A stretch of 42,457 nt of DNA, from the sequence record DRR723986_793; one strand, written 5' to 3'. Below, one piece after another: positions 3,065 to 32,547 of this stretch (position 1 is the stretch's first letter; each line of letters begins with the position of its first letter). The notes under the pieces are model-generated. The model did no database searches and was not told the origin of the DNA. It worked only from the letters and a program-made list of their open reading frames with translations. The position numbers and the translations under genes were made by a program.

Positions 3065-3657
3065 GTCTTGAGGTAATTCTCGCGTCCGGGAGCGAAAGCC
3101 GCCGGCGATTGCTGACTTCTGCTGGCGTGGAGGCGACAGCTGTTCGCCCGAACGTCGATGAAGATGCGATGAAAGCCGGGCTGCGCGCCGAAGGTCTGCC
3201 CGTGCGCGATCAGGCCATGCGGCTTGCTGAACTGAAAGCCGTCAAGATTTCCCAGCGCCAGCCAGGGCTTGTCATTGGCGGCGACCAGATGCTGGCGCTC
3301 GGCGACGAGGCTTTCGACAAGCCGAAGGATCTGGACGGCGCGCGCGATCACCTGCGGAAACTGTCCGGCAAGGCACATACGCTCGAGACGGCTATTGTGG
3401 TCTGCGAAAACGGCCAGCCTGTCTGGAGACACCTCGCACGGCCAAAGCTTACCATGCGTCCGCTCAGCGAGGACTTTATCGAACAATATGTGGAGCAGGT
3501 GGGCGATGCGCTTCTGTCCACTGTCGGGGCCTACCAGCTGGAAGGCCTCGGCGCGCAGCTCTTCAACAAGATCGAGGGGGACTACTTCTCCATACTCGGC
3601 CTGCCATTGCTGCCATTGCTTGATTATTTCCGTATCCGGGGGGTGCTGCCGTCATGA
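3061..3657 (+). CDS. maf: Maf family nucleoside triphosphate pyrophosphatase
   Basis: ILASGSESRR, IGGDQ, VGAYQLEG and ILGLPL motifs. GTGA overlap with the upstream stop. Confidence 0.9.
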   Translation: MSLEVILASGSESRRRLLTSAGVEATAVRPNVDEDAMKAGLRAEGLPVRDQAMRLAELKAVKISQRQPGLVIGGDQMLALGDEAFDKPKDLDGARDHLRKLSGKAHTLETAIVVCENGQPVWRHLARPKLTMRPLSEDFIEQYVEQVGDALLSTVGAYQLEGLGAQLFNKIEGDYFSILGLPLLPLLDYFRIRGVLPS

Positions 3658-8307: not shown

Positions 8308-8835
8308 ATGAGCCACCGCCGCCTGACCCCTGACGAAGCCCGCGCCTGGGCCCGCGTTGCGCGGACGGTCAAGCCGATCGGTCCGAAGACGGAAGATATC
8401 GAAACCTTCATCGACGCGCTGGAGCATGGCGAGCCAGTGCTGCGCCATGGCAAGGCGAAAGCGCCGCCTGTGCCGCAGGAAACGCCCGCGCCGAAACCGG
8501 TGAAAACGCCTGCGCCGCCGCAGAACCGGGCCAATGAGAAGCGCGTACGACGGGGGAAGCTGGAACTGGCGGGCCGGTTCGATCTGCATGGTCATACCCA
8601 AATCAGTGCCGATGCGGCGTTGCCAGATTTCCTCGCCCGGAAACAGGCAGAAGGTGCGCGCTGCGTGCTGGTCATCACCGGCAAGGGGAAAGGCGGGGAG
8701 GGCGTCCTGCGCCGCAACTTCCTGCGCTGGCTGGAGATGCCTGCGGCGCGCGCCTTTGTGTCCGGCTATTCGGAAGCCCACCCGCGACATGGCGGGTCTG
8801 GTGCCTGGTATGTGTTCCTGAGAACCAATACCTGA
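8308..8835 (+). CDS. Smr/MutS2 C-terminal domain protein
   Basis: DLHG, LVITGKG and HGGSGAWYV Smr motifs. Confidence 0.92.
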   Translation: MSHRRLTPDEARAWARVARTVKPIGPKTEDIETFIDALEHGEPVLRHGKAKAPPVPQETPAPKPVKTPAPPQNRANEKRVRRGKLELAGRFDLHGHTQISADAALPDFLARKQAEGARCVLVITGKGKGGEGVLRRNFLRWLEMPAARAFVSGYSEAHPRHGGSGAWYVFLRTNT

Positions 8836-9400
8836 AGCCGGACTGGCTTCGGCCATCCGGTGACGGAACATTGGTCGAGCATAAGCCCTCCGCTTACGCT
8901 TGGGCCTTCTCGGGGAAATTGATCCACTGGATCGATTTGTGACCCCTAGAAAAGGCCAGGGCGCAGCGGGCGCCGTGGCGCTCCGCCCGCCGCGCCGATC
9001 GGAGATTTCGGCATCCGCGGGCGCGACCGCTGGTTTATGACAGGATGCACCTGCCATGCCCGGCCGGCCCAGCAAGGGGGCAAGCCCCCGAACCGGATCG
9101 GCCATAGCGGGATTGGCCTTGGTAAGTGGTGTTTCCCGCACCCTCGCCCGACCGAACTCCCTAGACGCAAGGCAGGCCGTTACCCCTGCCATGCATCAAT
9201 CTCTCCAATCCTCCCCAAGGCAAACCGAACGGTACCGGCCCGGCCCCAGCCCCGAGGAGACGTGCAGGAAGGCCGGGAAGGGATGTGGGGTGGATTGAGA
9301 TTGGGGATCGCGCGTTGATCTCGAGTAACGGCGGAGGAGGGAGGTTGCCGCCAGTGGCGGACAGAGAATACCTAATCCCCACCCGAGATCCCGGCGCAAA
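8836..9400 (-). ncRNA. Unidentified large structured non-coding RNA or non-autonomous element
   Basis: More than 10 nested helices, including the long-range pair 9146-9153 with 8873-8880. Most plus-strand A-C mismatches become G-U pairs on the minus strand. No credible ORF. Family not recognised. Confidence 0.55.
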
Positions 9401-9401
9401 C

Positions 9402-9434
9402 AAAAAACCGGCACTCATTGAGTGCCGGCTTTCT
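9402..9434 (-). terminator. Intrinsic terminator of the DUF1013 gene (possibly bidirectional)
   Basis: CCGGCACTCA-T-TGAGTGCCGG inverted repeat with A6 on the left (U-tract on the minus strand) and CTTTCT on the right. Confidence 0.85.
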
Positions 9435-9454
9435 ATTGAACGGTTGCGTCAGGA

Positions 9455-10126
9455 TCAGCTGAAGTCGCGGAACACGTCGTCTGCGGAGACGTCTTTTTTC
9501 GCGGCGTCTTCATCCGACGTGTCGTAGGCATCCGGATCGTCCTGGGCCGGGGCGAGGCCCGGGCCTTCGCTGCGCAGGGCTTTCTCGGCTTCCATCTTGC
9601 GGCGCTTTTCGGCCGATTTCGCGATCACTTCGTCGAGCTCGATCTGGGTGCAGAGGCCGAGCGTCACCGGGTCGACCGGGCGGATGTTCGGCGAGTTCCA
9701 GTGGCTCTTGTCGCGCACATTGTTGATCGTCGACTTGGTGGTGCCGATCAGCTTGGAGATCTGCGCGTCGGAGACTTCCGGGTGGTTGCGGATGAACCAT
9801 GCCACGGCGTCCGGCTTGTCCTGGCGGCGGATGACCGGGGTGTAGCGGCTGCCCTTGCGCTTCGGCTGCGGGATGTGGGCGATTTTCGACTCGGCGACCT
9901 TCAGGCGGTAGCTCTCGTCATTCTCTCCGCGCTGGATTTCCTCGCGCGAGAGGATGCCGCCGGCGATCGGGTCGACGCCGCGCATATTCTCGGCCACGTC
10001 GCCATCGGCGATGCCTTTGACTTCAAGGTGATGCAGGCCGCAGAAATCTGCGATCTGGGCAAAGGTGAGGCTGGTATTGTCGAGCAGCCAGACGGCGGTG
10101 GCCTTCGGCATGAGGACTTCGGACAT
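9455..10126 (-). CDS. trcR: DUF1013 family protein (TrcR-like cell-cycle transcriptional regulator)
   Basis: LMPKATAVWLLDNTSLTFAQIADFCGLH.LEV.GIADG, RYTP..RRQDKPDA and PVDPVTLGLCTQ are DUF1013 signatures. Start at ATG 10126. Confidence 0.85.
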   Translation of the reverse strand: MSEVLMPKATAVWLLDNTSLTFAQIADFCGLHHLEVKGIADGDVAENMRGVDPIAGGILSREEIQRGENDESYRLKVAESKIAHIPQPKRKGSRYTPVIRRQDKPDAVAWFIRNHPEVSDAQISKLIGTTKSTINNVRDKSHWNSPNIRPVDPVTLGLCTQIELDEVIAKSAEKRRKMEAEKALRSEGPGLAPAQDDPDAYDTSDEDAAKKDVSADDVFRDFS

Positions 10127-29456: not shown

Positions 29457-30170
29457 ATGAAGACGACACTTGTTTCCGCGCTCGCCTTTGCGGCGGGTCT
29501 TGCAGCCCTGGCCTTGCCCGCAAGTGCCGATCATCGCGGTGACCGGGATACCTGGCGCGGCGGAGACTATCAGGGCCGCCAGGGCGGGGCCGTCCTCTAT
29601 TCCAATGCCGGTTTCCGTGGAGAAGCCGTGCGGATCGACGGCGCGGTGCCCAGCCTTGGCCGTATCGGTTTCAACGACCGGGCCTCTTCCATCGCGATCA
29701 ATCGCGGCGTGTGGGAAGTCTGCGTGAACGCGAACTTCCGTGGCCGGTGTGAAATCATCGATGCCAGCACAAGGCATCTGAATGCCTACCGCCTGAACGA
29801 CAATATCTCCTCGATCCGCCCGGCGGGGTATGACCGGGGCGGACGTCATGACCGGTGGGACGACCGACGGGATGGCCAGCGCGACGGCCGCCGAGGCGAC
29901 AGGGGTGGCAGACAGGGTGTCGTCCTGTTCCCGGATTCCAATCAGGGCGGCTATGCAATGGAGATCAGCCGGGATGTCGCCGATCTCAGCCAGTACCGAT
30001 TCAACGACAAGGCCAGTTCCTTCTATGTCAGCGGCGGCACCTGGCAGGTGTGCGAACACGCGAACTATCGCGGCCGCTGTGCGATCCTGACGGCAGGGGC
30101 CGGTGACCTCGGCCCGATCCGGATGAACGACAATATCTCGTCCATCCGCCGGTACAGTGGCTGGCGCTGA
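29457..30170 (+). CDS. Secreted beta/gamma-crystallin domain protein (two domains)
   Basis: AAGGAG SD and signal peptide (..PASA). Two domains with FNDRASS/LNDNISS and FNDKASS/MNDNISS motifs plus WEVC..ANFRGRC. Confidence 0.88.
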   Translation: MKTTLVSALAFAAGLAALALPASADHRGDRDTWRGGDYQGRQGGAVLYSNAGFRGEAVRIDGAVPSLGRIGFNDRASSIAINRGVWEVCVNANFRGRCEIIDASTRHLNAYRLNDNISSIRPAGYDRGGRHDRWDDRRDGQRDGRRGDRGGRQGVVLFPDSNQGGYAMEISRDVADLSQYRFNDKASSFYVSGGTWQVCEHANYRGRCAILTAGAGDLGPIRMNDNISSIRRYSGWR

Positions 30171-30221
30171 GGCACGGCAGCTGCCGCTTGCCCTTGGCGC
30201 GCGCGCCGCTACACAGGCGGC

Positions 30222-30773
30222 ATGAGCAAGACAGCAGACAACAGGCTGATCGTGGTGGGCGTCCTGAAGGGTGCCCATGGCGTTCGCGGCGATGTGCGGG
30301 TGAGAAGTTTCACCTCAGATCCTGACGCCGTATTCGATTTCGGCCCCCTGCTGGATGAATCCGGCAACGTGATCCTGACGCCGAAATCTGCCCGTCCGGG
30401 AAAGGACCATTTCATCGTCCGCCCGAAAGAGCAGAAGCAGAAGGAAGACTGGGATGCTCTGCGCGGCACCCTGCTGTACGTGCCCCGCGCCAGCCTGCCG
30501 GATGCGGACGAGGACGAGTTCTATATCGAGGATCTTGTCGGTCTCGATATCTATGGCGGCGGCAATGAACGAGCCGGCAGCGTTCGCGCCGTGCAGGATT
30601 TCGGGGCAGGGGATCTGCTGGAGATAGACCTCACCGGTGGCGGAAGTGTGTTCGTGCCTTTTACCCTGGCCGATGTGCCGGTTGTGGACCTCGCCGCCCG
30701 CCGCGTCGTGGTGGCGACGCTGGACGAATGGATGGCGGCACTGGACGAGGAAGAACCCCCGCCCGAGGCCTGA
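30222..30773 (+). CDS. rimM: Ribosome maturation factor RimM
   Basis: GAHGVRGDVRVRSFT, EFYIEDLVGL, DFGAGDLLEI and VPFT motifs. Confidence 0.95.
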   Translation: MSKTADNRLIVVGVLKGAHGVRGDVRVRSFTSDPDAVFDFGPLLDESGNVILTPKSARPGKDHFIVRPKEQKQKEDWDALRGTLLYVPRASLPDADEDEFYIEDLVGLDIYGGGNERAGSVRAVQDFGAGDLLEIDLTGGGSVFVPFTLADVPVVDLAARRVVVATLDEWMAALDEEEPPPEA

Positions 30774-30843
30774 CACAGTTTGTTGCGGGCCGTTCAGACA
30801 GGATTTGCCATACTTTCTGCCAGACTGAGTGAAAGTATGGCCG

Positions 30844-32547
30844 ATGATGACAAGGTTCCTCCGCCTCCTGGCAATGCTCGCCGCGCCGATCGCAATGGCT
30901 GCGGGAGTGCAGGCCCAGACAGAAACCTATGACTACGACCCCGCGACGGATGACGGGCCGCCGACGCTGATCCTCTACAGCGGCGCCAATTATTCCGGCG
31001 AAGCCCGCGAAATATACGACCCGGTCTACGCCCTGCCGAACCTGCAGTTCAACGACCGGGCCCGCTCCATCGCGGTGCTGTCGGGGCAGTGGGAAGTCTG
31101 CCAGCACAGTGACTTCACCGGCCGCTGTGTCTTCCTGCGCTATGACGTGCCGGATCTTGCCTGGTATGGCATGGACGCAGAGATCTCATCGGTGCGTCCT
31201 GTATATGAATATACAGATGCCGAGCATGGCCTGATGTTCGTGCGCGATGAGAATGGCTACATCCGTTATGTCGATGACGAGCAGTATGGCTATGACACCT
31301 ACAGCTATGGCTATGGCGCCTCGACCTCGATCCAGGTCTATCACTATGGCTATTCGCCTGATTACCGGCGCTACGGCTATTACGATCCGCGCCTTGGCTA
31401 CGACCCGTACGGCTTTGGCTGGTATGGCTACTCCCAGCCCTATTATTCCTCGACCCATTACCGGCGGGAACGTCCACCGCTGCGCGGGCACTATGGCGCG
31501 CGGGATGCGGCGGTCACGCTGTATACCGACTCCTATGACCGCGGCGCCTCGCTGGGCATCAATCGCGGCATCCGCGATCTCAGCCGCTACCGGTTCAATG
31601 ACAATGTGTCGTCGATCCAGATCCGGTCCGGCAAATGGGAAGTCTGCGAGCACGCCAATTTCCAGGGCCGGTGCCAGATCGTCGATGCCTCGGTCGACAA
31701 GCTGAACGGTCTGCGCCTGAACGACAACATTTCCTCGATCCGCCCGGTCGGCAGCACCGGCCATGACCGGTGGGACCGCCATGAACGGGACGGCCGGGAT
31801 GGGCGCCGGGGCGACTGGACAGGGGGCGACCGGAGGGACGGAGACCGCCGGGATGGAGACCGCACAAGACGCGATGCGCCGCAGGCGGGTATCAGCGCCG
31901 GCACCTATGATTCCGCCGCCCGTACGCCGCCAAAGGCAGGCCGCCTGCCGCCAGGCATCCGGAACATGCAATCTGAAGCCGCCGCTGCACAATCGGCCGC
32001 GCCGCTCCCGCGTGCAGTGACCTCCCCACCGGTCCGTCGGCCGGGTGAGCGCGTGGAAGAACGCCGGATTGAGCGGAGCCTCTCGGGTGGCCCGGCGGGG
32101 CGCAGCGGAACAGGCGTTCGCGCAACGCCTGCACCAAACCGCGCCCGGATCGAGCCGCCACGCATCAGCGCGCCGGAGCGCCGGGGAACGCCGCGCAGCC
32201 TGACACCAAAAGCCCCGGAGGTGCGCGCCGCGCCAACGCGTGACACCCGTCCGCCGGGCATGCGCCGGATCGAACCGCAGAGCCGTCCGGCAACGCCGGT
32301 CCGCCGCGCGCCGGAAGTCCGTCAGCCTGCGGTACGCGCGCCTGCAACACCCGCGCCGCGCATGACCCGGCCAGCCAGTCCGCCGCCACAGGCAAGAGCG
32401 CCCGCGTCGCAACCGGCTTCGCGCCCGGCCCCTTCGCCGCCGCCACGTGCCAGCGCGCCGCGCCCGGCCCCTCAGGCCGCGCCGAAACGGGATACCCGCC
32501 CACCTGCCATGCGCAGTTCAGGCCGCCCGACGCGGACGCAGGATTAA
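30844..32547 (+). CDS. Secreted beta/gamma-crystallin domain protein with Tyr/Gly-rich linker and Pro/Arg/Ala-rich tail
   Basis: Signal peptide (..VQA), two crystallin domains (FNDRARS, FNDNVSS, LNDNISS) and low-complexity segments. Start lies at 30829-30847. Confidence 0.85.
   Translation: MMTRFLRLLAMLAAPIAMAAGVQAQTETYDYDPATDDGPPTLILYSGANYSGEAREIYDPVYALPNLQFNDRARSIAVLSGQWEVCQHSDFTGRCVFLRYDVPDLAWYGMDAEISSVRPVYEYTDAEHGLMFVRDENGYIRYVDDEQYGYDTYSYGYGASTSIQVYHYGYSPDYRRYGYYDPRLGYDPYGFGWYGYSQPYYSSTHYRRERPPLRGHYGARDAAVTLYTDSYDRGASLGINRGIRDLSRYRFNDNVSSIQIRSGKWEVCEHANFQGRCQIVDASVDKLNGLRLNDNISSIRPVGSTGHDRWDRHERDGRDGRRGDWTGGDRRDGDRRDGDRTRRDAPQAGISAGTYDSAARTPPKAGRLPPGIRNMQSEAAAAQSAAPLPRAVTSPPVRRPGERVEERRIERSLSGGPAGRSGTGVRATPAPNRARIEPPRISAPERRGTPRSLTPKAPEVRAAPTRDTRPPGMRRIEPQSRPATPVRRAPEVRQPAVRAPATPAPRMTRPASPPPQARAPASQPASRPAPSPPPRASAPRPAPQAAPKRDTRPPAMRSSGRPTRTQD

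Follow-up and report, generated by a model that had tools for sequence, protein, structure and literature searches.

The window analyzed here is a stretch of 42,457 nucleotides (sequence record DRR723986_793), in which the element under study occupies the spacer between two convergent genes, a DUF1013 gene on the minus strand and smr on the plus strand. The DUF1013 protein of the window shares 100% identity with its counterpart in Hyphomonas sp. CY54-11-8. The element itself is ~515 bp long in this copy, runs from ~9341 to 8825 on the minus strand, and is one copy of an undescribed dispersed Hyphomonas family whose members measure ~450–620 bp. The locus is laid out as follows.

8308–8835, plus strand: smr, with its stop codon (8833–8835) inside the 3′ tail of the element
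8825–8860, minus strand: 3′ tail of the element with the terminal hairpin P12 (8860–8838); flanks of the copies diverge past the tail
9265–9341, minus strand: conserved upstream part of the repeated unit, where paralogue homology begins
9405–9432, minus strand: intrinsic terminator of the DUF1013 gene, a hairpin followed by a T-run, outside the element
9455, minus strand: end of the DUF1013 gene

The conserved fold occupies 9264–8829, within a repeated DNA unit that spans ~9341 to 8825. Homology between paralogues begins ~104 nt 5′ of a GGTACC motif and stops a few bases past the terminal hairpin; the two copies of genome G183 share 96.7% identity over 490 nt, and the match between the window and the CY54-11-8 copy begins at query position 120 (~9341). 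An earlier note on this DNA had placed a multi-helix RNA on the minus strand at 8836–9197. The RNA is real and lies on that strand, but part of its fold differs from the one proposed, and the limits were too narrow, missing the 5′ domain and the upstream block because the unit spans ~9341 to 8825. The DUF1013 terminator is kept in relatives that lack the element, and its plus-strand mirror was picked up by a terminator scan.

The final smr codons in the window differ from those at the empty site of L001, one of the two closest relatives. Positions 8825–8835 of the element tail provide the smr stop and the last three codons, so that the C-terminus of Smr differs with and without the element. 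Far from this site, at 29670–31750, the window carries three to four direct repeats of 27–41 nt at spacings of 330, 1048 and 546 nt, which are probably repeated domains within one or more coding regions.

We collected 29 distinct copies of the element. Five of these have an interrupted central domain and were left out of the structural alignment, A5, which holds the remaining 24 intact copies. RNAalifold on A5 yields 95 consensus pairs, 26 of them with compensatory changes on both sides. The predicted parts of the RNA, in window coordinates and all on the minus strand, are listed below.

9209–9260, minus strand: 5′ domain, in which P1 encloses hairpin P2
9260–9249 with 9221–9209, minus strand: P1, three pairs changed on both sides, 95.7% of cells paired
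9241–9235 with 9228–9222, minus strand: P2, 100% paired, one-sided G-U/A-U/G-C changes only
9000–9207, minus strand: central domain, closed by the long-range helices P3 and P5 and holding P8 and P10
9207–9202 with 9005–9000, minus strand: P3 (UGGAGA/UCUCCA), long-range, nearly invariant, 99.3% paired
9164–9197, minus strand: P4, with a highly variable stem and a conserved apical GUAA-containing loop
9161–9145 with 9023–9010, minus strand: P5, long-range, 5 of 12 pairs with both-side changes, 99–100% of cells paired
9089–9076, minus strand: P8, 5 of 5 pairs with both-side changes
9057–9037, minus strand: P10, 4 of 5 pairs with both-side changes
8960–8996, minus strand: outer stem of P11, 13 bp, shortened in the window
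8873–8959, minus strand: insertion found in the window copy only, made of the palindromic repeat module C and a short GUAA-loop hairpin
8860–8838, minus strand: P12, terminal hairpin, 8 of 8 pairs in 24 of 24 copies

Throughout A5, 97.6% of the cells are paired, compared with 37.9–44.8% when the partners are slid by 1–3 columns. Cells with changes on both sides number 187, against 68.3 ± 6.5 in shuffles, a number that none of 500 shuffles reached; the corresponding covariation scores are 0.305 and 0.161. The fold was derived from A5 and then scored on A5, which favors it somewhat. Despite this sharing of one alignment by structure and test, the width of the margin and the counts for single helices make the predicted fold convincing in our judgment. 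The window copy keeps 62 of the 64 core pairs and all eight pairs of P12. A helix joining the two ends of the RNA (alignment columns 9–11 with 505–507) was considered and set aside as too weak, amounting to just 3 bp with one-sided changes.

The alignment also indicates which strand carries the RNA. G-U or U-G combinations occupy 333 of the 2280 cells and A-C or C-A combinations only 19, an excess that identifies the RNA strand as the minus strand of the window and bears out, over 24 copies, the asymmetry that had been read from the window copy. Minus-strand folding reaches −194.2 kcal/mol, against −162.65 ± 6 in 100 shuffles (z −5.26), none of which was as good. The plus strand, too, folds better than shuffled versions of it (z −4.02), and folding energy alone cannot therefore pick the strand. 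Two of the properties on which the earlier note had made its RNA depend, covariation and a folding energy better than that of shuffled controls, are thus present, the former in a compensatory and strand-specific form.

At the level of single helices, the structure drawn from the window copy survives in part. Its first hairpin (9197–9164) is the family feature P4, in whose outer stem five of seven pairs have changed on both sides, and its hairpin at 9057–9037 is P10, with both-side changes in six of seven pairs; the terminal hairpin also stands. Of the long irregular arm at 9103–9062, the apical hairpin is sound (100% of cells paired, five of six pairs with both-side changes), and the lower part is 81.7% paired and mostly invariant. 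The 13-bp helix at 8996–8960 is likewise a family feature, but as the outer stem of the longer P11, which hardly varies, each of the 23 other copies keeping 23 of 23 pairs; the window copy is internally deleted here and lacks ~34 nt that the other copies have inside, as seen in alignments A3 and A5. The helix supposed to close a ~280-nt domain (9153–9146 with 8880–8873) is not a family feature, its 3′ arm being present in the window row alone and replaced by gaps in 23 of 24 rows; the central domain is closed instead by P3 and P5. The helix at 9139–9107 is unsupported, with 54.7% of cells paired. The arm at 8957–8903 and the GUAA hairpin do not belong to the RNA architecture: they lie, together with the 3′ arm of the discarded closing helix, inside the insertion of a palindromic repeat at 8873–8959, which is absent from the 23 other intact copies.

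Two loops and one stem deserve separate mention. The P2 loop bears a GGUACC palindrome that is invariant in 24 of 24 copies of A5. The P4 stem occurs in two variants that are split among otherwise near-identical copies in G218, and the same is seen in G177.

The RNA does not correspond to a known family. At gathering scores, the whole window is unmatched in Rfam 15, whose families include SRP RNA, group I and II introns and small ribozymes, and in E-value mode the region 8700–9500 returns only far sub-threshold matches, one of them to the DUF1013 terminator and none near gathering on the minus-strand element. There is also no Rfam match overlapping the element in four other copies, and the HEARO, intron and retron models of Rfam do not match it. 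ARAGORN predicts neither a tRNA nor a tmRNA gene in the window, and in five of five related genomes the genes for RNase P RNA, alpha tmRNA and 6S RNA are located at other sites; the exclusion of RNase P, tmRNA and 6S RNA, first argued from missing hallmarks, holds. No conserved ORF is common to the 24 copies of A5, which answers the question of a hidden protein-coding signal. The element thus displays what is generally expected of a structured noncoding RNA, namely compensatory changes, strand asymmetry and no conserved ORF. A literature search of limited extent found nothing relevant to it.

Upstream of the fold, the copies share an ordered block consisting of AATCC(A/G), ~17–19 nt, an A/T-containing −10-like block and the start of P1. 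Since the AATCC(A/G) and −10-like blocks are kept at a fixed distance in diverged subfamilies, we infer a putative promoter at 9265–9341. In the window, a conserved A of the −10-like block is replaced by T. A sigma-70 consensus scan returned no promoter in the element, and no U-tract terminator was found at its 3′ end. RNA libraries offer a hint of transcription at most: a 207-nt metatranscriptome contig of depth 2.5 lies over 9006–9205, strandless and possibly derived from DNA carry-over, and a second contig of 153 nt lies on 9235–9387 next to pieces on the flanking genes, giving neither strand nor RNA ends. Both are assembled contigs, from two weakly matching runs (word shares 0.11 and 0.06).

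Within our searches, the family was seen only in genomes of the Hyphomonas group and in five metagenome contigs; each carrier genome has from 1 to 8 or more copies. Whole-genome BLAST gave matches in 20 of 201 genomes sampled at the family level and in 21 of 80 at the genus level, leaving 59 of 80 Hyphomonas genomes without a match. A core-pattern search recovered the five metagenome contigs, no viral contigs and, with up to 2 mismatches allowed, nothing in a sample of 400 further alphaproteobacterial genomes. R1, a covariance model built on the 5′-most 130 positions, reaches more divergent copies, in 16 of 151 family genomes, with seven copies in G205, six in G149, five each in G218, G086 and G134, and four each in G131 and G039; it finds one copy in the 42-kb window. 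On G177, R1 gives no match at E ≤ 0.001; this genome holds eight full-length copies of a divergent subfamily with the same layout.

The site itself is not always occupied. The closest relatives, L001 and L003, have an empty site, with a DUF1013–smr gap of ~100 nt compared with ~580 nt in the window, and ~480 bases of the window spacer are missing from both. H. jannaschiana VP2 carries the element at the same site (73–83% identity) and two copies elsewhere, and Hyphomonas sp. CY54-11-8 has one copy, at a different locus. The copy-number and empty-site comparison called for in the earlier note thus reveals a dispersed multicopy family with an unoccupied site in both L001 and L003.

BLAST had at one stage suggested that P11 plus P12 might form an independent short repeat, present alone in G131, G115, G074 and G177. 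This reading was withdrawn, as full-length divergent elements lie upstream in all four genomes, detected by the covariance model in G131, G115 and G074 and by alignment in G177. Two further observations concern incomplete occurrences. In eight assemblies (L009–L015 and L031), the contig ends 230–1150 nt downstream of the DUF1013 gene, and R1 matches partially at the contig ends of L010 and L014; the spacer next to this gene may hold an assembly-breaking repeat in more species. In G003 (L181, ~3180–3250), a lone terminal hairpin and tail, with the tail motif tandemly duplicated and without the RNA core, sits downstream of truB and one further ORF, and may be a remnant of the element.

One location of the element recurs. 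A copy adjoining truB, in convergent orientation and no more than ~2 kb from the 3′ end of that gene, is present in 11 assemblies or contigs belonging to several subfamilies (G026, G201, G008, G002, G183, G195, G091, G152, G205 and two metagenome contigs); judged by coordinates, G131 also belongs here. In six syntenic genomes (G026, G201, G008, G002, G183, G091), the copy directly follows truB on the side of the conserved flank, which, judging from ORF sizes, probably holds rpsO and pnp. This recurrence in several subfamilies suggests that the element has resided at the truB locus since long ago. Paralogues within a genome are more alike (98% for the G002 pair, 99% for the G183 pair) than copies at the same locus in G002 vs G183 (95–96%), and this higher likeness within genomes points to gene conversion or repeated insertion as the probable source of homogeneity.

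An expectation that the element would be better conserved than truB failed. Between close species, its identity is 94.5–96.4%, compared with 96.4–97.9% for truB, and lies only slightly above that of truB third codon positions (91.8–94.2%). As the element evolves no slower than truB, selection is shown by the compensatory changes and not by rate.

Over 1.2–1.7 kb (L103–L108, L129–L131), the DNA upstream of the truB-side copy is unalignable between close species, at 47–51% identity, and its gene content differs by species, including a PIN_8 protein and a DUF6236 protein. The region has the appearance of a small island of variable content. In G001, an HNH_2 protein is encoded upstream of the copy at a third locus.

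The truB-side copies bear on the possibility that the element is an ordinary host gene for a regulatory or scaffold RNA, an old truB-side gene that was duplicated through recombination between nearby palindromic repeats. Their presence in several diverged subfamilies would fit long vertical inheritance, the compensatory changes imply lasting selection on the fold, and the promoter-like block is conserved. A host gene of this kind sits poorly, however, with the patchy distribution, with up to 7–8 copies among unrelated genes, with the empty site in the closest relatives, with copies interrupted by a foreign repeat, and with several assemblies that break shortly after the DUF1013 gene, as they do at repeats. 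On balance, we hold this explanation to be unlikely.

The foreign repeat, module C, is a ~68-nt palindromic sequence at 8884–8951 of the window that is scattered in Hyphomonas genomes and unrelated to the element. On the plus strand, its palindrome (8904–8946) partially matches the Brucella sRNA BASRCI153, scoring 24.6 bits where gathering requires 137. Module C also lies inside the copies at L082, L106, L107, L146, L180, L232 and L233, at a similar place in the central domain; in the window, it is inserted after P11 rather than in that domain. In the five interrupted copies among the 29, this repeat replaces the central ~130 nt, and it also interrupts the central domain in two of the eight G177 copies. 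These interrupted copies, together with the many Hyphomonas genomes that gave no match, indicate that the RNA is dispensable. With its deletion in P11, its foreign repeat insertion and its weakened −10-like block, the window copy may be decaying, though its core fold is kept.

Short palindromes invite comparison with bacterial interspersed repeats. The inverted-repeat build of P11, two inverted GC-rich repeats, resembles REP doublets; as in REP, REPIN and BIME sequences, the copies lie in intergenic spacers, and P12 and the hairpins preceding some copies are short GC-rich palindromes. The element unit differs in its length, which is 4–5 times greater, and in its ~300-nt core, which is not palindromic and contains long-range helices that covary. 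Since the terminal hairpin resembles one that stands ahead of many copies, mobilization by a RAYT protein was considered. This idea was dropped because the Y1/RAYT family PF01797, matched in 17 of 80 Hyphomonas genomes (E ≤ 0.001), has no match in six multicopy genomes of the element (G218, G205, G149, G134, G086 and G131) or in the carriers G183 and G026.

The same comparison weighs on a reading of the element as a cis-acting repeat of the REP, BIME or ERIC kind, working in DNA or at mRNA 3′ ends as terminator, insulator or stabilizer. Such a role would account for the usual position in spacers at gene ends, for the REP-like palindromes P11 and P12 and module C in the window, and for the better-than-shuffled folding of both strands. 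It would not call for long-range helices such as P3 and P5 plus five covarying helices, which exceed the needs of a terminator; the excess of G-U over A-C (333 to 19) suggests that a single strand is transcribed, the copies share a conserved upstream block, and the PF01797 searches of the six multicopy genomes went unmatched. We regard a purely cis-acting repeat as highly improbable. Transcribed miniature elements such as Correia and ERIC are likewise non-autonomous, dispersed, intergenic and foldable as RNA; here, by contrast, no terminal inverted repeats or target duplications were recognized by eye, and the element has a strand-asymmetric fold of at least 12 helices and its own promoter-like block.

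No partner gene was seen beside the copies examined. The genes flanking them are unrelated, of housekeeping type (truB, smr, acyl-CoA dehydrogenases, aldehyde dehydrogenase, glutamate dehydrogenase, a TetR regulator, PriA and others), and no transposase, nuclease or reverse transcriptase is among them. The earlier observation that no protein partner is encoded beside the window copy thus extends to the other copies examined, for which no recurrent neighbor gene was found. A wider search for a trans-acting enzyme yielded no candidate with PF01797, PF07282, PF00078 or PF01548. The TnpB zinc ribbon (PF07282) and reverse transcriptase (PF00078) are each found in none of five multicopy genomes, and no gene of the former type flanks the examined copies; the IS110 domain (PF01548) is present in two of the five.

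In G149, an IS110-family insertion sequence of ~1.2 kb encoding a DEDD recombinase (L222, 411–1649; L223; L226) lies directly upstream of three of the six copies of the element. The insertion sequence, which has four copies, is complete and ends before the element, and two of its four copies have no element beside them. Five of five G149 sites examined, including L224 and L225, share the short motif CCGCCCTATCCRACA just beyond the end of the insertion sequence, which suggests that this motif, and not the element, is what the insertion sequence targets. Following this comparison and the domain searches, TnpB, reverse transcriptase and IS110 were dropped as partners.

These results frame the possibility that the element is the guide RNA of an RNA-guided transposon, of the TnpB/IscB omega RNA or IS110 bridge RNA type, with the enzyme encoded elsewhere and P4 setting specificity. 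The multicopy state, the empty sites and the homogeneity within genomes would be as expected, P4 stems vary while the remainder of a copy is near-identical, and the IS110-family elements stand just upstream of half of the G149 copies. Set against this are the domain counts for PF07282 (0 of 5) and PF01548 (only 2 of 5), and the G149 insertion sequence, which is complete without the element and has two of its four copies at element-free sites sharing the short upstream motif. The variable P4 positions are base-paired rather than exposed, the same P4 stem occurs with different flanks, and the Rfam HEARO model finds no match. A guide RNA of this type seems to us decidedly unlikely.

Among known RNAs, the HEARO/IscB omega RNA (RF02033) is an ornate RNA of ~300 nt or more, dispersed in many copies with empty sites in relatives, many of the copies having no adjacent ORF. 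The element is alike in being large, covarying, dispersed and multicopy, with empty sites and with many copies that have no ORF beside them; it differs in having no match in Rfam 15, no adjacent HNH or RuvC gene in the examined copies and no recognized exposed variable guide segment. It differs from the bridge or seek RNAs of IS110/IS1111, which lie within the insertion sequence beside the DEDD recombinase gene, in standing outside the G149 unit. With OLE, GOLLD and ROOL, it shares the size class, many helices, a GNRA-type loop and a partial association with mobile DNA. In contrast to these, it matches no Rfam family, is confined to the Hyphomonas group in what was searched, and occurs in several chromosomal copies instead of one copy or a prophage copy.

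Taken together, the evidence strongly supports an undescribed family of structured RNAs, as judged from sequence comparison, carried on a dispersed and non-autonomous repeat. The alternatives put forward at the outset, an undescribed noncoding RNA or a non-autonomous mobile element, both accord with the absence of an Rfam match, the strand-specific covariation, the multiple copies, the empty sites and the lack of an adjacent partner. Mobility of the transposon type is an inference, since neither terminal inverted repeats nor target duplications could be recognized by eye (in copy-end alignments and in the filled vs the empty site), and the left boundary of the element differs between copies.

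As to what the element is, we favor, with moderate confidence, a self-contained RNA gene whose product would act in trans as a protein-bound scaffold or guide, and which would be non-autonomous and possibly selfish. The element would form a transcription unit in which the promoter-like block is followed by a ~430-nt minus-strand RNA, made up in order of the 5′ domain with P1 and P2, P4, the central domain closed by P3 and P5, P11 and P12. This RNA would be the functional product. Copying would take place at the DNA level, as the promoter-like block is copied too, and the copies would land mostly in spacers at gene ends; gene conversion or re-insertion would keep them alike within a genome. The factor with which the RNA acts would be encoded elsewhere.

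A bolder version of the self-contained RNA gene would make it an RNA-only selfish element. The ~430-nt RNA would then represent a new class and be itself the active part, as a ribozyme or as the guide or scaffold of an unrecognized enzyme encoded elsewhere, and it would promote its own copying or retention at gene-end sites, with the invariant, self-complementary GGUACC loop and the GUAA loop serving assembly. We consider this version rather unlikely.

To our knowledge, large bacterial RNAs with such covariation but without an Rfam family are uncommon. Earlier RNAs of this kind proved to be ribozymes, guides for the nucleases of transposons or RNA assemblies of an unusual sort. The family described here comprises more than 40 copies and includes paralogues in the same genome, unoccupied sites and copies that a foreign repeat has interrupted; this natural variation makes both its function and its mode of spread directly testable. 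For the Hyphomonas genomes themselves, the element accounts for long spacers and probable assembly breaks, and it merits annotation both as a repeat and as an RNA family.
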